Assembly: GCF_041083635.1 (NCBI RefSeq)
Contig: NZ_JBFPHB010000013.1
Span: 19,529 to 83,528 of the forward strand
DNA: 64,000 nt
DNA from: Leptothrix ochracea
Lineage (GTDB): Bacteria > Pseudomonadota > Gammaproteobacteria > Burkholderiales > Burkholderiaceae_C
Direction of reading: 5' to 3'
Made by a program: the position numbers and the translations under genes. Shown here piece by piece: positions 4,408-64,000 of this stretch; position 1 is the first letter of the stretch, and each line of letters starts with the position of its first letter. The notes below the pieces were generated by a model. The model was not told where the DNA came from. It saw nothing but the letters and a program-made list of their open reading frames with translations, and did not search any database.

Positions 4408-4424
4408 AGCAGAAAGCATGCCGC
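4408..4424 (-). promoter_or_regulatory. sigma54 (-24/-12) promoter of glnA
   Basis: Minus strand CGGCATGCTTTCTGCT = GG-N10-GC, about 80 nt upstream of ATG. Confidence 0.8.
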
Positions 4425-4483
4425 CGACCCAAGCGGCCTCATGGAAGCGAATCCGCACGCGCCCGGGCCGCATGGACCCGCAT

Positions 4484-4556
4484 TGCACCACATTGGTGCA
4501 AACAAGGGCACCAATGCCGAGCAGGAGCGCTCAAGCACCGCGCACCATTTCGGGGC
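4484..4556. promoter_or_regulatory. NtrC enhancer sites
   Basis: Perfect TGCACCA-CAT-TGGTGCA palindrome at 4484-4500; weaker GCACCA-led sites near 4507 and 4540. Confidence 0.85.
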
Positions 4557-7254: not shown

Positions 7255-8328
7255 TTATTGACGGGGGGCGTGATCCAGCATCCAAACCCCATGGGGCGAT
7301 TTGCCCACATTGATTTGCTGCACCACTTTCTTCGACGCCGTGTCGATCACCGTGAGCTTGCGCGCCCAGCGCGAAGCCACATAGATGAACTTGCGGTCGG
7401 CCGACAAATCCATGCAATCGGGACCACTCGGCCCCGGATAAGTGTCGGTCACACTCAGGGTTTGGATGTCGATGCGACTGATGGAGTTGGCCACGCGGTT
7501 GCTCACCAGCACATGGCGCTTGTCGCCCCAAGCGCGGAAAGCGTGCGCGCCGTCGCCGGTCGGGATGCGCTTGATCAGCTTGGGCTCGGCCCCTTGCACG
7601 TCCCACGCCTCGACCACCGAGTCCCCCGTCAAACCAACCAACAAGGTTTTGTCATCGGCACTGAGAAACACGTCGGCCGGCATCTTGCCCGAGGGGTGCG
7701 TCCAACGCGGGGTTTGGGTGGCCAAATCAATGGCGATCAGCTGGTCGCTGTCTTGCAAGCTGGCGTAAACCACCGTGCTTTTGCTGTCGATGATCACGTG
7801 GCTCGGCGTTTTACCTGCCGGCACGCGCTTGGCCAGTTGCAGCTCGAAGCCGCCCCCTGCCGGACGAATCACCTTGTAGATATCGATGTGGTTGAGCCGA
7901 TTGGCGGCGGTCACAAACCACTTCATGTCGGGTGAAAAACGCAGCTGATAGGGATCGACGATGTCGTTGATCGTGCGTTGGATATCGCCCGTGCGCGGAT
8001 CAACCAAGGTGAGCGAATTGCCCAGCGCATTGGCCACCAAGAGCGATTTCTCGTCCGGCGAAAGGTAGAGGTGATGCGGCTCTTTGCCCACCGGCACGCG
8101 CTTGATCTCAGTCAGCGCCACCGGATCAATCACGCTCAGCGTGGCGTCGAGCGAGTTGAGGACAAATATCGGCGTCTTGGCGGACGCAGCGGTTGAGGCC
8201 GCTGGCGCCGCCGCGCCCCCTTGGGCTTGGGCCGACATCCACACCCCCAAGCTCAAGCCCAAACTCAGGCCAACCCACCGTGCCATCGATGACCCGTCAC
8301 GGCGGCCACCCATCTTCGTCAAACCCAT
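7255..8328 (-). CDS. Secreted YncE/YVTN-type beta-propeller protein
   Basis: Repeated blades (VPVGKEPHHL, VPAGKTPSHV, IPTGDGAH, INVGKSPHGV) and signal peptide; true start may be 8286. Confidence 0.85.
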   Translation of the reverse strand: MGLTKMGGRRDGSSMARWVGLSLGLSLGVWMSAQAQGGAAAPAASTAASAKTPIFVLNSLDATLSVIDPVALTEIKRVPVGKEPHHLYLSPDEKSLLVANALGNSLTLVDPRTGDIQRTINDIVDPYQLRFSPDMKWFVTAANRLNHIDIYKVIRPAGGGFELQLAKRVPAGKTPSHVIIDSKSTVVYASLQDSDQLIAIDLATQTPRWTHPSGKMPADVFLSADDKTLLVGLTGDSVVEAWDVQGAEPKLIKRIPTGDGAHAFRAWGDKRHVLVSNRVANSISRIDIQTLSVTDTYPGPSGPDCMDLSADRKFIYVASRWARKLTVIDTASKKVVQQINVGKSPHGVWMLDHAPRQ

Positions 8329-9167: not shown

Positions 9168-10073
9168 TCAAGCCACGCCATGGGAACGCAGCCATGCGAG
9201 GCTACGCCGCCAACCGTCCTCGGCCGCTTCTTTGCGATAACTCGGGCGGTAATCCGCGTGAAAAGCGTGAGGGGCATCAGGGTAAACCACGAAATCGGAG
9301 GCTTGGGCCGCTTTGGTCCCCTTTGCTAAGCCTAACTTCATTTGTTCGACCTGCGCCAACGGAATACCGACATCCTGCCCGCCATACAACCCCAGGACCG
9401 GCGCAAACAACTTGGCCGCAACATCCAGCGGATGCACCGGTGAGCGCTCATTCACCGGACCCGTCAAACGGCCATACCAAGCCACCGCCGCTTTGAGACG
9501 CGGGTTATGTGCGGCATAAAGCCAACTGATGCGCCCGCCCCAGCAAAAGCCGCTCACCCCCAAGCGATTCAGATCGCCGCCTTGGGTCGTGGCCCAAGCC
9601 GCGCAAGCGTCCAAATCAGCCAACACTTGAGCATCGGGCACTTTCGAAACCACCTCGCTCATCAGCTTGGCGATTTCGCCATAGCTGCCCGCATCGCCTT
9701 GACGGGCGAAAAGTTCAGGGGCCACCACCAAATAGCCTTGGTGGGCCAAGCGGCGTGCCACATCCGCGATGTACGCATGGACGCCGAATATTTCACTCGC
9801 CAAAAGCACCACCGGCCATGGCCCGGGACCTGTCGGCACTGCACGATAGGCCGGCATTTGGAAATCAGCCACCGCGATCGTCACCTCTCCTGCCACCAAA
9901 CCACGGGTATCGGTATGCTGGGCGGTCTGCGCCAAAACGGGCAAAACAGCCGCTGCAAAACCAACACCTAATCCAGTGCGCACAAAATCGCGCCTGTTGT
10001 AATTCTGTGACGGCGTCGGTGCGTCAATTTCCAAGGGACGGGCATCATCACGATCCATAACGATTTCTTTCAT
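9168..10073 (-). CDS. Dienelactone hydrolase family protein
   Basis: EIFGV, GFCWGG nucleophile elbow, HAFHADYRPSY; Tat-like RRDF N-terminus. Confidence 0.9.
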   Translation of the reverse strand: MKEIVMDRDDARPLEIDAPTPSQNYNRRDFVRTGLGVGFAAAVLPVLAQTAQHTDTRGLVAGEVTIAVADFQMPAYRAVPTGPGPWPVVLLASEIFGVHAYIADVARRLAHQGYLVVAPELFARQGDAGSYGEIAKLMSEVVSKVPDAQVLADLDACAAWATTQGGDLNRLGVSGFCWGGRISWLYAAHNPRLKAAVAWYGRLTGPVNERSPVHPLDVAAKLFAPVLGLYGGQDVGIPLAQVEQMKLGLAKGTKAAQASDFVVYPDAPHAFHADYRPSYRKEAAEDGWRRSLAWLRSHGVA

Positions 10074-55436: not shown

Positions 55437-56810
55437 TCAATCGGGCTTGCCTTCTAGGGTTTTCAAACGCCGATACAAGGTCCGCTCACTGACGCCTAAA
55501 CGCTGGGCCAGTTCGGCACGGCTACCGCGATGCGCCAAGACTTCAGCGCGCAAAAGATCGCGGCTGAGATCGTGCAAGGAGCGTGGCGGGACGGCTGCTT
55601 CGGCGGGTGGCACGGTGCTGGGCGAAGCGGGTGGGGGGCTCACCGCTTCACGGGCAGCGCGACTGAACTCAGGTGTCAGGGCTTCTTCAACGTGGTGCGG
55701 CTCCAGCACCGGACCATCACAGAGCAAGCTGGCGCGCTCAAGCAAGTTGCGCAATTCGCGCACATTGCCGGGAAAATCATAGGCCGACAGCAGTTCGAGC
55801 GTGGCGGGAGCCAGCGTCACCGGCCCATCGCGCCGCAGGCGTGCCAGCAATGCGGGGACCAGCAGGGCCAGATCCTCACGACGTTCACGCAGCGGCGGCA
55901 AGTGGATCGGAAAGGTACTGAGCCGGAAATAGAGATCGGAGCGAAACAGATTCTGCGAAGCCATGTCGCGCAGATCACGATGCGTGGCGGAGATGACCCG
56001 AATATCGGCGTGACGCCACTCCGTCGAACCAACCCGGCGGTACGTGCCGGATTCAAGCAAGCGCAGCAACTTGACCTGCATCGGCAACGGAATCTCGCCG
56101 ACTTCGTCGAGAAACAGCGTGCCCCCGCTCGCTGATTCCACCAGACCTTGCTTTTGATGGGTGGCCCCGGTGAAGGAGCCTCGCTCGTGACCGAAAAGCT
56201 CGCTCTCAAACAAATGTTCGGGCAAGCTGGTGCAGTCCAGCACCACCAGCGGCTTGTGTGCCCGGCGGCTGGCGGCATGCACCGCACGCGCCACCAATTC
56301 TTTGCCCGTGCCCGACTCCCCTTGGAGCAACACCGTGGCCTCGCTCGGGGCCACGCGGGCCACCTTTTGCAACATGCGCTGGAAAGCCGGGGCACGCCCC
56401 ACCAGCTCCCATCCAGCTGCCGCTGCGGTCGCTGACGACACGGTGCGCACGGCTTCCATTTTTTCGACAAAGTACGCCATCTCGCCTTCGGCATTGCGCA
56501 AGGGCAACAACTCAATGTTGACGTAGGCCTCGCCCTTGGGCGTGTGGTGCAAATGCAAGACGCGCTCACGCTGTCCCGAACTACGGGCCTTGGCCAAAGG
56601 GCAACATTCACCCGCTTGATCGCAGGGCACGCTGAAGTGGTGCGAAACCTCGTAGCACGTCCGGCCCACCACACTGCCTTCGGGACTGAACTGCTTGCGA
56701 TACGCCGCGTTGGCCGCAAGGATGCGGTACTGGCGATCAAACAAGATATGCGGCTCGGCGAGCCCTTCTAGGTATGACACCAACTCGGGCAACAACTTCA
56801 CGCCAGGCAT
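55437..56810 (-). CDS. FisR-type PAS / sigma54 AAA+ / Fis-HTH activator
   Basis: [40 protein letters not shown]; PAS Cys52/63/69/70. Confidence 0.9.
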
Positions 56811-56840
56811 CTGACACCTCTTTTCATGGGTCGCCGATTG

Positions 56841-56875
56841 TGTCAGAGCACTGCCATAACTGTCAGTGAGCGTCA
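56841..56875 (+). promoter_or_regulatory. Candidate activator enhancer (phased TGYCA repeats)
   Basis: TGTCA 56841, TGCCA 56852, TGTCA 56861, CGTCA 56871. Confidence 0.6.
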
Positions 56876-56993
56876 GTAAAGCCATCCCCTGGATGCAACA
56901 AATCGCCCCCCTCGGGGGGGCTCCTTGAGGCTTAAACGTGCATAAATGCCTCGACGAAGGGGCGACGCCCCACTTTTGGACCTCATACACGGC

Positions 56994-57008
56994 TGGCATG
57001 GTTCTTGG
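56994..57008 (+). promoter_or_regulatory. sigma54-like promoter of the cyd operon
   Basis: TGGCATG-GTTC-TTGG: good -24 box, correct spacing, -12 C replaced by G. Confidence 0.6.
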
Positions 57009-57040
57009 AATACATAGGGTATTCACGCAAAGCATCTGCC

Positions 57041-57190
57041 ATGTCACCCAACCTCTCGCACGACCCGCACCACGCCCCAAAGCCAGTGCGCCAACGCCTC
57101 AGCCTATCCCTGAGCAGCGAACTAACCCTGATCATCCTCATCAAGCTCGTCGCACTCTGGATGCTTTGGGCCCTGACAAGGAGTGCATGA
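57041..57190 (+). CDS. CydP-like small membrane protein (49 aa)
   Basis: Single TM ELTLIILIKLVALWMLW ending 1 nt before the cydA ATG. Confidence 0.65.
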   Translation: MSPNLSHDPHHAPKPVRQRLSLSLSSELTLIILIKLVALWMLWALTRSA

Positions 57191-57191
57191 C

Positions 57192-58739
57192 ATGTCTGAC
57201 CAACTTGTGGATGTGTCACGGCTGCAATTCGCCGTCACCGCGCTTTATCACTTCCTGTTTGTGCCCTTGACCATCGGCATGACATGGATGCTGGTCATCA
57301 TGGAAAGCGTTTACGTCATGACCGGCCAAGTGGTTTGGAAGGACATGACGCGCTTTTGGGGCAAGTTGTTCGGCATCAACTTCGCCTTGGGCGTGACCAC
57401 CGGCATCACGATGGAGTTTCAGTTCGGCACCAACTGGGCTTACTACTCGCACTATGTGGGTGATGTCTTCGGCGCACCGCTGGCCATCGAAGGGCTGATG
57501 GCCTTCTTCCTCGAATCGACTTTCATCGGTCTGTTTTTCTTCGGCTGGGACCGTCTCGCGCGCACCCAACATTTGTTGGTGACCATCCTGATGGCGCTGG
57601 GCACCAATCTGTCCGCGCTGTGGATTCTGATCGCCAATGGCTGGATGCAAAACCCGGTCGGGGCTGAGTTCAGCTGGCAGACCATGCGCATGGAAATGGT
57701 CGATTTCTGGGCCGTGCTCTTCAACCCGGATGCTCAAGCGAAGTTTGTGCACACCGTCTCGGCCGGCTACGTGACCGGTGCGATGTTCGTGCTCTCGATC
57801 TCGTCGTGGTACTTGCTCAAAGGCCAAGACGTGGCCTTTGCCCGACGCAGCTTCCGCGTGGCCTCCGCCTTCGGTCTGGCCTCGGTGTGCTCGGTGATCG
57901 TGCTGGGCGATGAGTCCGGCTACACCGTGGGCGAAGCCCAGCAAACCAAGATGGCCGCGATCGAAGCCATGTGGGACACCGAACCCGCGCCAGCAGCTTT
58001 CAACCTGATCGCTTGGCCCAACGAGGCCGAGATGAAAAACGACTGGGCGATCGAAATTCCGTGGGTGATGGGGCTGATCGGCACGCGCTCCATCCACAAG
58101 GAAATTCCTGGCATCAAAGAACTGATCGCCCGCAACCGCACCCGCATCGTCTCGGGCATCGAAGCCGTCAAGGCACTGGACACGCTGCGCCACGATCGCA
58201 GCCACCGAGAAGCGGAGTCCGTCCTCAAGCAGCATCAAGCCAATCTCGGCTTCGGTTTGCTGATGCGCAAATATGTCAAGTCGATGGCGGAGATCACCCC
58301 CGCGCTGATCGACCAAGCGGCCCGCGACACCATCCCCAAGGTCACACCGATGTTCTGGGGCTTCCGTGCCATGGTCGGTTTGGGCATGGGCATGCTGCTG
58401 CTTTTTGCGACCGCGTTCTGGTCCACGCTCAAGGTGCGCTGCGGTGAACAACGCTGGTTGCTGCGCTGGGCCCTGCTGATGCTGCCCGCCCCTTGGCTGG
58501 CGTGTGAGTTGGGCTGGTTTGTGGCGGAGTATGGCCGCCAACCGTGGACGATCTACGGCGTGCTGCCCACGCACCTTTCGGTGTCAAGCATCAGTGTCGA
58601 GAGCGTCTATCGCTCTTTGGCGGGCTTTGTCGCCTTCTACACGGTGCTGCTGATCATCGAAATGGGTTTGATGATTCGCTTTGCTCGCCTCGGTCCCGGC
58701 AGTCTCGGTACCGGCCGCTACGCCAACGAAACCCATTGA
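57192..58739 (+). CDS. cydA: Cytochrome bd ubiquinol oxidase subunit I (long Q-loop)
   Basis: YHFLFVP, EFQFGTNW, KFVHT, KMAAIE, FRAMVG, GWFVAEYGRQPW. Confidence 0.97.
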   Translation: MSDQLVDVSRLQFAVTALYHFLFVPLTIGMTWMLVIMESVYVMTGQVVWKDMTRFWGKLFGINFALGVTTGITMEFQFGTNWAYYSHYVGDVFGAPLAIEGLMAFFLESTFIGLFFFGWDRLARTQHLLVTILMALGTNLSALWILIANGWMQNPVGAEFSWQTMRMEMVDFWAVLFNPDAQAKFVHTVSAGYVTGAMFVLSISSWYLLKGQDVAFARRSFRVASAFGLASVCSVIVLGDESGYTVGEAQQTKMAAIEAMWDTEPAPAAFNLIAWPNEAEMKNDWAIEIPWVMGLIGTRSIHKEIPGIKELIARNRTRIVSGIEAVKALDTLRHDRSHREAESVLKQHQANLGFGLLMRKYVKSMAEITPALIDQAARDTIPKVTPMFWGFRAMVGLGMGMLLLFATAFWSTLKVRCGEQRWLLRWALLMLPAPWLACELGWFVAEYGRQPWTIYGVLPTHLSVSSISVESVYRSLAGFVAFYTVLLIIEMGLMIRFARLGPGSLGTGRYANETH

Positions 58740-58752
58740 AGAAAGAGTCACC

Positions 58753-59892
58753 ATGCTTTTCGATTACGAAACCCTCAAGGTGATCTGGTGGCTGCTGGTG
58801 GGCCTGCTGCTGGTCGGTTTTGCCATCATGGACGGCCACGATATGGGCGTGGGCGCGCTGCTGCCCTTTGTTGGCCAAGGCGACGAGGAACGTCGTGTGG
58901 TCATCAACACCGTCGGCCCGCACTGGGACGGCAACCAAGTCTGGTTCATCACCGCCGGTGGCGCGCTCTTTGCCGCTTGGCCGCTGGTCTACGCCACCGC
59001 TTTTTCTGGTTTTTACTGGGCCATGCTGTCGGTCCTGTGGGCGCTGTTTTTGCGCCCCGTCGGCTTCGACTACCGCAGCAAGATCCATCACCCGCTCTGG
59101 CGTCAAACCTGGGACTGGGGTCTGTTCATCGGCGGGATCGTGCCCCCGCTGGTGTTTGGCATCGCCTTCGGCAACTTGCTGCAAGGGGTGCCCTTTTATT
59201 TCGATGACTTGCTGGTGTCGCACTACACCGGCAGCTTTGCCGACATGCTCAACCCCTTTGCCCTGCTGAGCGGCGGGGTGGCCTCGGCCATGATCATCCA
59301 GCATGGCGGCGTGTATTTGGCCCACCGCACCGAAGGTGATGTGCAGCGCCGATCTATGCGTGCAGCAAGCGTGGCGGGTGTGCTCTGTCTGATTTTGTTC
59401 GCAGGGGCCGGTTTGTGGCTGGAACGGATCCCCGGCTATGTGATCACGTCGGTGGTGGATACCGCTGCCCTGCCCGATCCGCTGAATAAAACGGTGATCC
59501 AGGTCGATGGGGCTTGGTTGAGCAACTTCCTGCACTGGCCGTGGCTGTGGCTGCTGCCCACCTTGACGTTTGCCGGCACAGGCCTTGCCATCGTGCTCGG
59601 CCAAGGGGGCCGCACAGGGTGGGCTTTTGTGGCCTCGTCGCTGTCCATGGCCGGCATCATCGGCACGGCCGGGGCCGCAATGTTCCCCTTTGTCATGCCC
59701 TCATCCACGCATCCGAACGCCAGCTTGACGGCGTGGGACAGTGTTTCCAGCCCGCTCACCCTCAGCATCATGCTGGTGGCCGCGGCTATTTTTATCCCGC
59801 TCATCGTCGTCTACACCAGTTGGGCGTATCGGGTGATGCGGGGCAAGGTCACGGTGGACCATATCCGCCGCAACGCTCACAGCGCCTATTGA
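58753..59892 (+). CDS. cydB: Cytochrome bd oxidase subunit II
   Basis: IMDGHDMG, GPHWDGNQVW, LRPVGFDYRSK, YTSWAY. Confidence 0.97.
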   Translation: MLFDYETLKVIWWLLVGLLLVGFAIMDGHDMGVGALLPFVGQGDEERRVVINTVGPHWDGNQVWFITAGGALFAAWPLVYATAFSGFYWAMLSVLWALFLRPVGFDYRSKIHHPLWRQTWDWGLFIGGIVPPLVFGIAFGNLLQGVPFYFDDLLVSHYTGSFADMLNPFALLSGGVASAMIIQHGGVYLAHRTEGDVQRRSMRAASVAGVLCLILFAGAGLWLERIPGYVITSVVDTAALPDPLNKTVIQVDGAWLSNFLHWPWLWLLPTLTFAGTGLAIVLGQGGRTGWAFVASSLSMAGIIGTAGAAMFPFVMPSSTHPNASLTAWDSVSSPLTLSIMLVAAAIFIPLIVVYTSWAYRVMRGKVTVDHIRRNAHSAY

Positions 59893-59982: not shown

Positions 59983-60129
59983 ATGTGGTATTTCACCTGG
60001 ATACTGGGCGTCGGCTTTGCCGTCTTGCTGGCCATTCTCAACGCCATGTGGGGCGAACACGCACTGGCACGGAGCGAGAGTCATCGTCCCGATCCAGCAT
60101 CCGCTGACACGGACGGATCACACCCTTGA
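59983..60129 (+). CDS. cydX: Cytochrome bd small subunit CydX (48 aa)
   Basis: MWYFTWILG..AILNAMWGE; GAGGAG SD; too short for the ORF track. Confidence 0.93.
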   Translation: MWYFTWILGVGFAVLLAILNAMWGEHALARSESHRPDPASADTDGSHP

Positions 60130-60362
60130 ATCTGCTGGTCCTTGGGGGTGCGTGTGCCATCGCGCTGGTGGTCACGATTTACCCCCCTATGCTTGTGCAA
60201 AGCGACGGCCACGTGGATCATGTGCGCCTCGCTTTACTGATGTTGGCCATGAGCACCGGTTTTATCCGGGGCGTCGGCTATATCCCGAGCCACCGCTTCT
60301 GGCGGTGGCTTTTTTCGACACCGACTGCTTTGGCATGGCTGTTGCTGGCAGTCTGGTGGTGA
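60126..60362 (+). CDS. ybgE: cyd operon YbgE-family membrane protein
   Basis: GFIRGVGYIP..FWRWLFS; TTG start overlaps cydX stop. Confidence 0.8.
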   Translation: MNLLVLGGACAIALVVTIYPPMLVQSDGHVDHVRLALLMLAMSTGFIRGVGYIPSHRFWRWLFSTPTALAWLLLAVWW

Positions 60363-60396: not shown

Positions 60397-61035
60397 ATGC
60401 CTGACGTCTACTTTCGCCAACTCTATGACGCTCATCACGGGGCCCTGACCTATGTCTTGGGCGAGACCGAACAAGGTGAGGCCATCGTGATTGATCCCTT
60501 GGCGCAGGACAGCGTGCTGCTCGGCGCCATGTTGCAGGAACAAGGTTTGCGTCTGCGCTGGGTCCTGCACACGCATTTGCACCACGGCTCAGAACGCCAA
60601 GGCCTCAAGGCAGGTCATGTCTACAGCCGACAAATCACCCGAGGCCTTCCGACAGCCCACATCCCCAAAGAAACCCGGCTGGTCGATCACAACGAGCTGA
60701 TTGCTTTTGGTCAAGAGCGCCTGCGTGTCATTGCGACACCCGGTCACACACCCAGTTCCATCAGTTTTCTGTGGCGGGACCGCTTGTTTTGTGGGGACGC
60801 GCTGCACTTGGGCGGCTGCCCACCATGCAATGATCCCAGCAGCGATGCTGGGGCCATGTATGACAGCGTGACCACACACCTGCTCACGCTGCCCGGTGAA
60901 ACGCTGGTGTTTCCAGGACACGATCTGGCGGGCCGTAGCGTCTCCACCATCGCCGAGGAGCGTCGCCGCAACAAAGCCTTTTCAGGCCAGTCGCGGGACG
61001 CCTTCATGAGCCTCAGTCCAGCATTTCCGGCTTAG
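60397..61035 (+). CDS. ETHE1-type persulfide dioxygenase-like MBL protein with degenerate motifs
   Basis: FRQLYD, IDPL, TPGHT, FCGDAL, FPGHD, STIAEE; HxHxDH reads HLHHGS. Confidence 0.8.
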   Translation: MPDVYFRQLYDAHHGALTYVLGETEQGEAIVIDPLAQDSVLLGAMLQEQGLRLRWVLHTHLHHGSERQGLKAGHVYSRQITRGLPTAHIPKETRLVDHNELIAFGQERLRVIATPGHTPSSISFLWRDRLFCGDALHLGGCPPCNDPSSDAGAMYDSVTTHLLTLPGETLVFPGHDLAGRSVSTIAEERRRNKAFSGQSRDAFMSLSPAFPA

Positions 61036-62680
61036 CCATCCACTCACGGCCCTTGAGCATCGCCTCCCAATACAAGGGCGGCATGATCCGTTCCTTGAGC
61101 CACCAAGCCAGCCGTGAGGGGCGAGTGCCGTCGAGCAACCAACTCGGGAAGCTCGGGGCAACCTTGCCACCATAGGTGAACTCAGCCAACACGATCTTGC
61201 CGCGCTCAACGGTCAACGGGCAAGAGCCGTAGCCATCGTAGCTTGCCGAAACTTTGCGACCCTCACGGTCAGCAAGCAGGTTCTCAGCCACGACCGGAGC
61301 TTGCTTACGCGCCGCCGCCGCCGTCTTGGCGTTGGGCGTTGAGCTCACGTCGCCGAGCGCAAAGATGTTGTTGTAACGACGATGACGCAGCGTGGTTTGA
61401 TCCACCTCCACCCAGCCCGCAGCATCGGCCAAGGGACTGACGCGGATGAAGTCTGGGGCCTGCTGTGGCGGGCAGACGTGAATCATGTCGAAGCTGCGCT
61501 CCACCGTGTCCTTGGTGCCATCCGCCTTGGTGCGGGTGAACACCGCTTTACGACCCGGGCCGTCAATGGCGGTCAGGTTGTGCGTGAAGTTGAGGTCCAC
61601 GTTGTAGCGCTTGATGTATTCCATCAAGGCCGGTACGTAGTCGGCCACGCCGAACAACGCTGGCCCAGCGGTCATGAAGGAGATGTTGATGTCCTTCAAA
61701 CGGCCCTGACGCAGCCAGTGGTCACCGGAGAGATACATCGCCTTTTGCGGTGCACCCGCGCACTTGATCGGCATGGTCGGCTGGGTGAACAGCGCCTTGC
61801 CCGATTTCAACTCCTGCACCAACTTCCACGTGTAGGGCGCCAAGTCATAGCGATAGTTGGAGGTCACACCATTGCGACCCAACGTATCGATCAGCCCCTC
61901 GATGCCGTTCCAGTTCAGCTTGATCCCTGGGCAGACCACGAGATGCTTGTATTTGACGATCCGGCAGCCATCCAAAATCAAGGCATCTTGCTCAGGCTCG
62001 AACGCCGCCACCGCAGCCTTGATCCAATGCACGCCCCGGGGCAAAACCGCGCCCATCTGACGAACAGTTTGTTCTGCGGTGAACACGCCGCCACCCACCA
62101 AGGTCCAACCCGGCTGGTAGTAATGAACATCGGCCGGATCAATCACGGCGATATCCAAATGACGATCGCGCGCCAGCAAGCTCGCCGCCACAGCCGCCCC
62201 CGCAGCACCGCCCCCCACGATCACAATGTCGTGACGGGCATCAGCCACATCCACCGGCGTCTTGCCACCGTTGGCGATCCGGCGCACCACGCCATGCATC
62301 TTGAAACCAGCTTGACTGGAGCGTTCCAAAATTTCTGGCAAAGGCGTCCTGCCGGCTTGCGACAAGGCCCACAGCGTGACAGTACGGGTACCCGTGCGGC
62401 AATAACCGAGCGTGGGCTTGGGCAAGGAGTCGAAGACCTTGCCAAATTCGACGGCATTCTCATCGCTGACCTTGCCGGACTCCACCGGCAGGTACACGGC
62501 CACCATGCCCAGAGCTTCGGCAGCGCGACTGATTTCCTTGAACAGCGGCTGATCCCCAGCTTCCCCGTCAGGACGATTGCAAACCACCGAGCGAAAGCCC
62601 AGCTTGTTCAGTTCAGCAAGGTCAGCCGGCTGGATTTGCGCGGTGACTGATAGCTCAGGCGTAAGGGCCCGGATTTCCAT
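61013..62680 (-). CDS. sqr: DUF442 (rhodanese-like) fused to type II sulfide:quinone oxidoreductase
   Basis: C34 (VCNRPDGE), C94 (YCRTGTR); GGGAAG, HYYQPGWTLVGGG, KCAGAPQK, YGSCPL. Confidence 0.93.
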   Translation of the reverse strand: MEIRALTPELSVTAQIQPADLAELNKLGFRSVVCNRPDGEAGDQPLFKEISRAAEALGMVAVYLPVESGKVSDENAVEFGKVFDSLPKPTLGYCRTGTRTVTLWALSQAGRTPLPEILERSSQAGFKMHGVVRRIANGGKTPVDVADARHDIVIVGGGAAGAAVAASLLARDRHLDIAVIDPADVHYYQPGWTLVGGGVFTAEQTVRQMGAVLPRGVHWIKAAVAAFEPEQDALILDGCRIVKYKHLVVCPGIKLNWNGIEGLIDTLGRNGVTSNYRYDLAPYTWKLVQELKSGKALFTQPTMPIKCAGAPQKAMYLSGDHWLRQGRLKDINISFMTAGPALFGVADYVPALMEYIKRYNVDLNFTHNLTAIDGPGRKAVFTRTKADGTKDTVERSFDMIHVCPPQQAPDFIRVSPLADAAGWVEVDQTTLRHRRYNNIFALGDVSSTPNAKTAAAARKQAPVVAENLLADREGRKVSASYDGYGSCPLTVERGKIVLAEFTYGGKVAPSFPSWLLDGTRPSRLAWWLKERIMPPLYWEAMLKGREWMAKPEMLD

Positions 62681-62757
62681 GACTGATTTCCCTAAAGAAG
62701 AGTGGAGACGCAAGAGAGTGACGGGGTTGAAGCTAGATGACAACCTTCTGATCTAGC

Positions 62758-62772
62758 TCAAGATTCGTGCCA
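62758..62772 (-). promoter_or_regulatory. sigma54-like promoter of sqr
   Basis: Minus strand TGGCACG-AATC-TTGA: perfect -24 box, -12 C replaced by A. Confidence 0.7.
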
Positions 62773-62868: not shown

Positions 62869-62923
62869 TGCCAGCCATGTCATATCACTGCCAGTCCTTG
62901 GCATGAAATGGCACAAATTGGCA
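62869..62923. promoter_or_regulatory. Candidate symmetric (3+3) enhancer array between sqr and the TDT gene
   Basis: TGCCA 62869, TGTCA 62878, TGCCA 62889, then TGGCA 62899, 62909, 62919. Confidence 0.65.
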
Positions 62924-63010
62924 GTCTCGCTGCACCGCCTGCCTGCGCTTGTTGGTTTCGAACAAGACCCCATACCGGCACGAGGGTACCGCAGAGGGTA
63001 TTCTTTCACC

Positions 63011-64000
63011 ATGGCAAAAAACCCGACTCCTCTCAAATTTTTGGCCCCTGGCTGGTACGCCATCGTCATGGGCTTGGCTGGTTTATCGCTGGCATGGCAA
63101 CGCGCCACCCCCTTCATGGGCGAACAAGCCAACATGGTCGCATGGGCCCTTGGTGGCTTGGCCGTGGTCGTTTTTGCGGTCTTGGCACTCCTCACCGTGA
63201 TCCGTGGTCAACGCTATCCTGAGGCTTGGGCCGACGATCGCCGTCACCCGGTGCGCCACACGTTCATTGCCACCTTGCCCATCTCTATGTTGTTGCTGGC
63301 GACCGTGGCCGTGGCGTTGAACGGGGTGAGTGAACCCGCACGTTGGCTTTGGTGGATGGGCAGCCTCGGGCAGTTTGTCGTCTCGATTTGGGTGCTGGCT
63401 CGCTGGTGGCTCGGCCCGCAAGCGGGTGGCTTGGTCTGGGCCAGCGTCACCCCGGCTCTTTTGATTCCGATCGTCGGCAATGTGATCGCGCCCTTGGCGG
63501 GTGTCCCCTTGGGCCATACCGAGTGGGCGGCGGCGCAATTTGGCATTGGCTTGCTCTTTTGGCCGATCATCTTGGCCCTTCTCGTCATCCGCGTGGCGAT
63601 CCAAGGTTTGTGGCCTGAACGATTCATGCCAACGCTGTTCATTTTGATCGCCCCGCCAGGCGTTGGTGGGTTGGCCCTGCTGCAACTTGGCGCACCGAGT
63701 TTGGTGGGATGGGCGCTTTGGGGAATCGCCTTTTTCAGTTTTGTGTGGATCGCGACCCAGATGCCACGCATCACTGGCCTGCCCTTTTCGCCCATGCACT
63801 GGGCGATGTCGTTCCCAATGACCGCCTTGGTTGCCTTGACGTTGAAGCTGGCCACGCCCGGCAGCGGTATGGGTTTGCTGGGCATCACCTTGCTGGCGGC
63901 GACCTCCTTGATCGTCTTGAGCTTGGTCACCGCCACCATCCGGGGTTTGCGTGAGGGCACCCTCCTCGCTCCCGAGCAGATTGCCGTGATTCAGCCCACT
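63011..64000 (+). CDS. TDT (TehA/SLAC1) family anion transporter, 3' end off window
   Basis: Manual translation MAKNPTPLKFLAPGWYAIVMGLAGLSLAW..FIPIVGNV..WAMSFP; many TM helices. Confidence 0.85.
   Translation, partial: MAKNPTPLKFLAPGWYAIVMGLAGLSLAWQRATPFMGEQANMVAWALGGLAVVVFAVLALLTVIRGQRYPEAWADDRRHPVRHTFIATLPISMLLLATVAVALNGVSEPARWLWWMGSLGQFVVSIWVLARWWLGPQAGGLVWASVTPALLIPIVGNVIAPLAGVPLGHTEWAAAQFGIGLLFWPIILALLVIRVAIQGLWPERFMPTLFILIAPPGVGGLALLQLGAPSLVGWALWGIAFFSFVWIATQMPRITGLPFSPMHWAMSFPMTALVALTLKLATPGSGMGLLGITLLAATSLIVLSLVTATIRGLREGTLLAPEQIAVIQPT

Follow-up and report, generated by a model that had tools for sequence, protein, structure and literature searches.

A predicted FisR enhancer and sigma-54 promoter at the cyd-pdo operon of Leptothrix ochracea, with a sister enhancer at sqr

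In a 64,000-nucleotide stretch of the Leptothrix ochracea genome (contig NZ_JBFPHB010000013.1, positions 19,529 to 83,528; hereafter the window), a 230-bp spacer separates fisR on the minus strand, the gene of a sigma-54-dependent activator, from a divergent plus-strand unit encoding a cytochrome bd oxidase (cyd) and a persulfide dioxygenase (pdo). This spacer holds an array of short phased repeats and a sigma-54-type box. From the sequence and its relatives, we consider it likely that the array (56837-56877) is a FisR enhancer which drives the sigma-54 promoter of the cyd-pdo operon, and that a sister enhancer serves the nearby sulfide:quinone reductase gene, sqr. For comparison, we collected the loci of activator relatives from genome, metagenome and assembly collections, using protein searches and contig look-ups, and added the chromid of Cupriavidus metallidurans CH34. 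Loci are given with an L number; L003 is from Marinobacterium, L021 from Hydrogenophaga taeniospiralis, L025 from a Rhodoferax metagenome-assembled genome and L026 from C. metallidurans.

An earlier note on this DNA had described four TG(T/C)CA pentamers recurring every 9-11 bp upstream of fisR. The spacing and three strict matches stood: on the plus strand, TGTCA (56841-56845), TGCCA (56852-56856) and TGTCA (56861-56865) follow each other at 11 and 9 bp. The fourth unit (56871-56875), 10 bp further on, is a CGTCA variant. The note placed the array about 30-65 bp upstream of the fisR start, and the measured distance is 31-65 bp. At its core lies an 18-bp dyad, ACTGCCATAACTGTCAGT, with one mismatch to the consensus ACTGCCA-N4-TGGCAGT; a search of the 64 kb for this consensus with at most one mismatch returned 56850-56867 as the sole match. 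Further half-sites flank the core dyad with a phasing of about 10 bp and in mixed orientation. Being about one helical turn apart, the half-sites would be presented on the same face of the DNA. Most likely, the array is the upstream activating sequence of FisR, the adjoining bacterial enhancer-binding protein (bEBP), which is predicted to bind there.

Other ways of reading the repeats were tried and rejected. A simple direct-repeat reading was dropped: in L001 and L011 the arms are perfectly inverted, and what the genomes conserve is the N4 dyad. The alternative register TGGCAG-N4-CTGCCA was unspecific (6 matches versus 6.6 expected). Inspection also led us to reject the array as a tandem of -24 elements or as a cryptic fisR promoter of the sigma-54 type, as a properly spaced -12 is absent after every unit.

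Downstream of the array, the predicted non-canonical sigma-54 box was recovered as TGGCATGGTTCTTGG. Exactly ten bases lie between its -24 GG and its -12 dinucleotide, the canonical GG-N10 arrangement, with GG in place of GC at -12. The -24 element reads TGGCAT (56994-56999), and TGGCAY is present in 12 of 12 orthologous boxes. The box points away from fisR, towards cydP-like-cydABX-ybgE-pdo; these genes (cydP-like-cydA-cydB-cydX-ybgE-pdo) are predicted to form a single operon headed by it. Given standard -24/-12 geometry, we infer a transcription start near 57020, 21 nt 5' of a small open reading frame (ORF) at the position of cydP. A consensus scan of the plus strand upstream of cydA found no sigma-70-like promoter. 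The array lies 119-153 bp upstream of the box (56994-57008), where about 80-200 bp would be expected of a sigma-54 enhancer, and the activator gene is adjacent.

Neither the cyd box nor the sqr box ends in the canonical TTGC at -12. They read TTGG and TTGA, respectively, with the G of the GC pair retained. In every Burkholderiales orthologue, TTG is followed by G, A or T; a C follows it in the gammaproteobacterial loci only. A canonical GG-N10-GC box, CGGCATGCTTTCTGC (4423-4409), exists in the same window upstream of glnA on the minus strand (region 4409-4515), together with classic NtrC dyads, TGCACCAATGTGGTGCA (4500-4484). Taking this box as internal control, we conclude that the C-less -12 is specific to promoters of the cyd and sqr kind and is not a property of the organism's sigma-54. 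The gene ntrB follows (1202-2284).

The earlier note further claimed that pentamer and geometry are repeated at sqr, which our analysis bore out. Six phased units (TGCCA at 62869, TGTCA at 62878, TGCCA at 62889, and TGGCA at 62899, 62909 and 62919; spacings 9, 11, 10, 10 and 10 bp) lie 97-151 bp upstream of the sigma-54-type box TGGCACGAATCTTGA on the minus strand (62772-62758). In L019, a 90% relative, the counterpart of this box is identical bar one C/T change, and five phased units occupy the same position, mostly in the opposite orientation. The locus is also present in a microbial-mat metatranscriptome (run X4), whose RNA is available as unstranded assembled contigs. A strain variant found there carries flank and spacer changes only, in both regions, leaving pentamer cores and box untouched. 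Directly after the sqr -12, an inverted repeat, GCTAGAT-N12-ATCTAGC (62732-62757, minus strand), extends across the predicted start. L019 has a nearly identical copy. With an RNA fold z-score of -2.1, the repeat could be the operator of a second regulator or a leader hairpin.

Beside FisR-family genes, the same layout of array and box was found in 12 other genomes, including C. metallidurans. When the spacer was aligned among four genomes (the window and three others whose FisR is 71-90% identical to its own), two conserved islands only emerged, the array and the box. Island 1 reads CGATTGTGKCAGARCACTGCCA..CTGKCAG and island 2 TGGCAYGSTTCTTGGARTA; in L001 and L011, island 1 is TGGCAGAACACTGCCAACCCTGGCAGT, with perfect inverted arms. 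The comparison of orthologous regions, a kind of check proposed in the earlier note, recovered the two elements in question. The half-site consensus, drawn from 51 sites, is aCTGCCAa, in which 75% of sites have C at -1 and 75% have C at the centre. Allowing at most two mismatches, the dyad occurs once each in L001, L011, L019, L021, L022, L025 and L012, with no further copy in up to 17 kb; L023 has a perfect N3 form. Orthologous dyads always lie 40-87 bp upstream of the activator start codon, and the dyad is conserved with the activator gene in eight loci, as expected of a bEBP enhancer. Chains of at least three phased TGNCA units were found 14 times in 236 kb (window plus loci), 12 of them at FisR-gene or sqr enhancers. 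Conversely, all clade-type sigma-54 boxes (12 of 12) have a phased TGNCA chain nearby, and all orthologous boxes are directed away from the activator gene.

The pairing of activator and cyd is kept in L001, L011, L019/L020, L021, L024, L025 and L003, and L019/L020 show the complete layout of the window, including pdo, sqr and the SLAC1 gene. In L022 and L023 the divergent operon lacks cydAB, yet array and box are kept; Rieske, FixG-like, globin and metallo-beta-lactamase genes are found there instead. On the loci compared, array and box follow the regulator gene, not cyd. For the same reason we rejected an ArcA-like control of cyd, as the array tracks the activator gene even where cydAB is absent. 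The C. metallidurans locus has a fisR-pdo-sqr arrangement without cyd genes, which we take to be the layout of the characterised FisR locus. Its spacer contains CGCCAT, CTGCCA, CTGCCA and then ACTGCCA-AGT-TGGCAGT, phased at about 10 bp, with the box TGGCACGGGTTTTGA. Four more TGNCA units form another phased chain just 3' of the C. metallidurans fisR (L026, 7332-7361); no clade-type box was detected near it. The dyad centre is separated from the -24 GG by 137 bp at the window's cyd promoter, about 125.5 bp at sqr, 115.5 bp in L001/L011, 147.5 bp in L019 and 92-93.5 bp in L021-L025. As computed from the mapped positions, the distances of loci in the same clade differ by approximately whole turns of the helix.

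The genes divergent from the FisR-like gene vary (L021, 1738-4772; L022/L023, 5100-7950; L024, 1982-4850). In Hydrogenophaga (L021), genes for a multihaem cytochrome, cytochrome b and a Rieske protein stand between cydB and cydX. The L024 operon encodes an SQR-type flavoprotein and a thioredoxin/ankyrin protein, and the L022/L023 operons, which lack cydAB, encode a FixG-like ferredoxin, a truncated globin, a Rieske protein and rhodanese/hydrolase proteins.

Several observations weigh against a FisR enhancer acting on sigma-54 promoters. Taken alone, the fisR-side cluster is within chance: at least four TGNCA within 55 bp occurred in 49 of 100 Markov-simulated 64-kb sequences. The C missing from the canonical -12 possibly implies weak sigma-54 binding. 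Between the cyd enhancer and its box, the IHF motif WATCAANNNNTTR is absent at up to two mismatches, and the sqr region has two weak matches only. At sqr, the window and its 90% relative L019 share the phasing but not the orientation of the half-sites, which is odd for a strictly dyadic operator and is not accounted for by simple dyad recognition. The ORF at the CydP position (57041-57190) had zero Pfam or NCBIfam matches, CydP included. One X4 contig runs through fisR, spacer and cydA uninterrupted; it reveals no start site, and DNA carry-over is possible. Finally, Cupriavidus FisR is reportedly expressed constitutively, which, if so, would weaken the autoregulation considered below.

The first two of these points would also suit the view that the spacing of the pentamers (56841-56875) is a product of chance in GC-rich DNA and the TTGG box no promoter. 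Half of the random 64-kb sequences hold an equally dense TGNCA cluster, a degenerate sigma-54 box pattern finds 4 matches in the window versus 1.4 expected, and the -12 is non-canonical. We nevertheless regard this explanation as very unlikely. Array and box are conserved while the remaining spacer diverges, the dyad is unique, and the fisR-side array, not significant alone, gains significance in context. The window has two clusters of at least four TGNCA only, one on the fisR side and one on the sqr side, and both adjoin its only two perfect clade-type boxes; the six-unit sqr cluster was matched in 1 of 100 Markov simulations of 64 kb. We counted 53 TGNCA over twelve distinct 150-bp stretches of orthologous DNA, compared to 11.1 +/- 3.2 in shuffles, and 20 adjacent pairs 9-11 bp apart, compared to 0.16 +/- 0.4. 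None of 2,000 shuffles attained either the count or the number of pairs, so neither the cross-genome enrichment nor the phasing was matched. The clade-type box abstracted from the orthologues, TGGCAYGNNTCTTGD, matches the window perfectly at two places, each next to one of the clusters, and at three with at most one mismatch, a number that 0 of 100 shuffles reached.

Two more sigma-54-like boxes are located inside long ORFs on the minus strand, TGGCACTGGAATTGC (1399-1413, in ntrB) and TGGCACGCCGCTTGG (9746-9760). Upstream of both, a phased TGNCA array is absent, and we therefore take them to be probably chance matches.

A sigma-70-like promoter of fisR, with 9 of 12 consensus matches (0.2 expected in shuffles), lies entirely within the array (Table 1), its -35 being the reverse complement of the third half-site. 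A half-site also doubles as the -35 of the activator promoter in L019, L021 and L026; it does not in L023, which gives four of the five genomes tested. Since the array covers -35, spacer and -10, bound FisR should hinder RNA polymerase at the fisR promoter. It is plausible that FisR limits its own synthesis in this way, and NorR and NtrC provide precedent for an activator that occupies its own promoter region; autoregulation is the weakest step of our interpretation.

The same overlap lends itself to another explanation, in which a different protein, a separate regulator of fisR, binds the array, or the array is merely the sigma-70 promoter of fisR, and FisR acts elsewhere. It is true that -35 (CTGACA) and -10 (CACAAT) coincide with array units and that TGTCAG, read on the complementary strand, gives a near-consensus -35. 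However, the G/C-centred aCTGCCAa is conserved even where it is unlike a -35, and units recur upstream of the sqr box, where no activator gene begins. Moreover, arrays and clade-type boxes always occur together, and the spacer has no further conserved island to serve as an enhancer. We therefore judge this explanation improbable and favour the array as the FisR enhancer.

The protein encoded by fisR has the features of a bEBP. Pfam assigned PAS_4, Sigma54_activat (E = 4e-67), AAA_lid_14 and HTH_8 (residues 417-450); the AAA+ domain contains both a Walker A motif (GESGTGKE) and a GSFTGA loop of the GAFTGA type, and a Fis-type helix-turn-helix (HTH) forms the C-terminus. The fisR start codon is an ATG at 56810, with GAGGTG just before it. 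The encoded protein is 99% identical to one from a metagenome-assembled genome assigned to L. ochracea. Over its full length, FisR is 51% identical to the FisR-type protein of C. metallidurans, and the HTH and recognition helix region is near-identical between the two. The sensor cysteines of Cupriavidus FisR are reportedly numbered Cys53, Cys64 and Cys71; in our alignment, Cys52, Cys63 and Cys70 of the window protein correspond to Cys53, Cys64 and Cys71 of the C. metallidurans protein. NCBIfam offers no FisR-specific model. Linkage also fits the FisR family, with pdo in the divergent operon and sqr under its own box and enhancer. Three cysteines of the R domain constitute the FisR sensor (PMC12754779).

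The regulator might still be a paralogue within the FisR family whose signal is not sulfide-derived sulfur but, for instance, oxygen, redox state or nitric oxide, and which mainly controls respiratory-chain genes; this would leave enhancer and promoter as we read them. The divergent operons of L021-L025 consist mostly of cydAB, Rieske/cytochrome b, FixG-like ferredoxin and globin genes, not pdo or sqr, and the FisR cysteines are not generally conserved across the family (PMC12754779). Yet the window FisR keeps all three Cupriavidus-type cysteines, pdo lies inside the predicted operon and a second enhancer at sqr. Among the relatives, the L024 operon includes an SQR-type flavoprotein, and rhodanese and hydrolase genes occur in the operons of L022, together with a metallo-beta-lactamase gene, and of L025, where sox genes flank the activator gene on its other side. 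A different signal is thus unlikely in our view, and we retain sulfide-derived sulfur as the proposed trigger.

We propose the following mechanism. Sulfide-derived sulfane sulfur would modify the three sensor cysteines and thereby release the AAA+ domain. By analogy with the NtrC/NorR class, the phased half-sites, all on one side of the helix, would be filled by FisR dimers that assemble into an active AAA+ oligomer, which a DNA loop over about 137 bp would bring to the sigma-54 RNA polymerase at the cyd box. ATP hydrolysis would then open the promoter, with transcription from near 57020, and the transcript would encode the CydP-like peptide, the cytochrome bd quinol oxidase (cydABX, ybgE) and the persulfide dioxygenase (PDO). 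The six-unit enhancer would act likewise on the convergent sqr, and the fisR-side array would double as the fisR operator. Such a regulon would combine sulfide:quinone reductase (SQR), which passes electrons from sulfide to quinone, a sulfide-insensitive bd oxidase, which passes them from quinol to oxygen, and PDO, which removes sulfane sulfur. In A. baumannii, sulfide induces cydAB, the bd oxidase is sulfide-refractory, and a functional link between SQR and CydAB via the quinone pool has been proposed (PMC7315123). Sulfide-induced cydAB has been seen in several bacteria, its regulator left unnamed (PMC7315123).

Our locus resembles the FisR-pdo-sqr system of Cupriavidus pinatubonensis JMP134 and Acinetobacter baumannii (PMC7315123) in its divergent sigma-54 activator with a cysteine-bearing sensor, in the sigma-54 promoter on sulfide-oxidising genes and in having pdo and sqr as targets. 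In contrast to that system, the fisR-adjacent promoter of the window heads cydP-like-cydABX-ybgE, with pdo last, and sqr, which converges on that operon, forms a unit apart with an enhancer to itself and encodes an N-terminal sulfurtransferase-like domain. The sulfide-induced cydAB of A. baumannii lies elsewhere and is not tied to FisR (PMC7315123). With the fisR-pdo-sqr locus of C. metallidurans, the window shares both the half-site array and the C-less -12. NtrC at glnAp2 is comparable in its dyad sites, which precede a -24/-12 promoter by about 80-140 bp, its Fis-type HTH and its oligomerisation on adjacent phased sites. It differs in half-site (TGCACCA versus ACTGCCA in the window), dyad spacer (N3 versus N4), sensor (a receiver domain versus the Cys/PAS-like domain of FisR) and -12 (GC versus GG/GA).

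In Escherichia coli, NorR is encoded divergently from norVW, and clustered NorR sites by its own promoter activate the target and repress the activator gene; its site is GT-N7-AC, its sensor an iron-GAF domain and its signal a respiratory poison. The window is similar in the divergence of activator and target, the sites by the activator's own promoter and the poison signal, but not in site consensus, sensor domain or targets. E. coli cydAB is under ArcA/FNR control, with sigma-70 promoters and ArcA repeats phased at 10-11 bp. Here the cyd target and the 10-11 bp phasing are common to both, whereas the window promoter is of the -24/-12 type and its array tracks the FisR gene where cydAB is absent (L022, L023, L026).

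In the literature covered by our search, which did not extend to the 2017 FisR paper, we found no description of the FisR operator and, judging by titles or abstracts, no direct FisR control of cyd. For Cupriavidus, the operator of FisR may be known already. The new point would apparently be the direct control of cytochrome bd by FisR, the type of switch (a bacterial enhancer with a sigma-54 promoter) being already known. Leptothrix-like bacteria of iron mats and many Comamonadaceae would then be predicted to switch on the sulfide-resistant cytochrome bd directly by a sulfide/persulfide sensor, co-regulated with SQR and persulfide dioxygenase. The predicted operator (aCTGCCAa half-sites, core dyad ACTGCCA-N4-TGGCAGT) could reveal FisR regulons in genomes and metagenomes, and so could the promoter signature, TGGCAYGNNTCTTG followed by any base but C. 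In addition, the C-less boxes would provide a set of natural variants for how the -12 position tunes sigma-54 promoters.

More speculatively, FisR-dependent promoters might constitute a distinct architectural class, defined jointly by enhancer geometry and promoter tuning, a proposal that we ourselves hold to be rather doubtful. The geometry of such a class may be that of up to six pseudo-symmetric half-sites in helical phase, with a TGNCA core, whose orientation can flip from one close relative to another with no functional loss. The six units at sqr could correspond to the six DNA-binding domains of one hexamer, which would be docked fully rather than as two dimers with one added from solution. 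As for tuning, the systematic C-less -12 could set closed-complex stability or basal leakiness of a regulon that responds to a poison. Separately, and with as much doubt, FisR and sigma-54 acting directly on cytochrome bd would be the missing regulator behind sulfide-induced cydAB in many Betaproteobacteria.

The features of the locus are listed in Table 1.

Table 1. Coordinates of predicted regulatory elements and genes in the 64,000-nucleotide window.
Feature	Positions	Strand	Details
Enhancer array, four half-sites	56837..56877		TGTCAG 56841-56846, ACTGCCA 56850-56856, TGTCAGT 56861-56867, CGTCAGT 56871-56877
Core 18-bp dyad ACTGCCATAACTGTCAGT	56850..56867		consensus ACTGCCA-N4-TGGCAGT, one mismatch
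Putative sigma-54 promoter TGGCATGGTTCTTGG, cyd	56994..57008	+	-24 GG 56995-56996; -12 GG not GC, 57007-57008
Second enhancer, six half-sites	62869..62923		three per orientation, 9-11 bp apart
Putative sigma-54 promoter TGGCACGAATCTTGA, sqr	62758..62772	-	-12 GA not GC; predicted start near 62746
Sigma-70-like fisR promoter	56837..56866	-	-35 CTGACA 56866-56861, 18-nt spacer, TG-extended -10 CACAAT 56842-56837
fisR, sigma-54-dependent activator, 457 aa	55437..56810	-	PAS-like sensor, AAA+, Fis-type HTH
ORF at CydP position, 49 aa, single-helix, membrane	57041..57190	+	positional counterparts in L021, L025 are Pfam CydP
cydA, cytochrome bd oxidase subunit I	57192..58739	+	Pfam Cyt_bd_oxida_I, E = 4e-173
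cydB, cytochrome bd oxidase subunit II	58753..59892	+	Pfam Cyt_bd_oxida_II, E = 4e-102
cydX, YbgT family small subunit	59983..60129	+	Pfam YbgT_YccB, E = 2e-15
ybgE, cyd operon protein	60126..60362	+	Pfam Cyd_oper_YbgE
pdo, ETHE1-type persulfide dioxygenase, metallo-beta-lactamase fold	60397..61035	+	Pfam Lactamase_B
sqr, sulfurtransferase-like domain fused to sulfide:quinone reductase-type flavoprotein	61013..62680	-	Pfam BLH_phosphatase, Pyr_redox_2

Between enhancer and cyd promoter, a short patch, TTAAACGTGCATAAATGCC (56932-56950, plus strand), is shared by L019 only, as TAAAACGTGCCGAAATGCC. Nowhere else is the spacer as rich in A/T, but the patch does not match the IHF consensus. On the minus strand (56895-56921), a GC-rich hairpin, GCCCCCCCGAGGGGGGC, is followed by GATTTGTT between enhancer and sigma-54 box (z = -3.2). 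In L019, a strong hairpin of unrelated sequence, with a T-run, stands on the opposite strand just 5' of the -24 (7845-7862, z = -3.6). Insulation from read-through and bending of the DNA are possibilities for both hairpins. A further candidate hairpin upstream of the -24 (56959-56971) was discarded, being no better than shuffles (z = -0.8).

Within ybgE, about 50 bp 5' of pdo, a hairpin with T6 (60293-60318) precedes a perfect sigma-54 consensus, TGGCATGGCTGTTGC (60331-60345), on the plus strand; where it stands, L019 reads TGGCTT. A metatranscriptome contig starting at 60104 has an about ten-fold higher mean depth. The TGGCATGGCTGTTGC element could be an internal pdo promoter or a mere by-product of the coding sequence. 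The best solved relatives of the pdo product are 9rhq, 4ysb, human ETHE1 (4chl) and BpPRF (5ve3), and in NCBIfam the sqr product matched a type III SQR model (under its cutoff) and the TIGR01244 sulfur transferase domain.

The convergent genes pdo (plus strand) and sqr (minus strand) share 23 bp at their 3' ends (61013-61035), and both FisR-dependent transcripts would therefore be mutually antisense at their ends. Beyond sqr and divergent from it, a gene for a SLAC1/TehA-type anion channel extends from 63011 on; no sigma-54 box pointing towards this gene was found. Its leader (62950-63013 in the window, 1835-1900 in L019) is highly conserved and contains the repeat AGGGTA-CCGCAG-AGGGTA.

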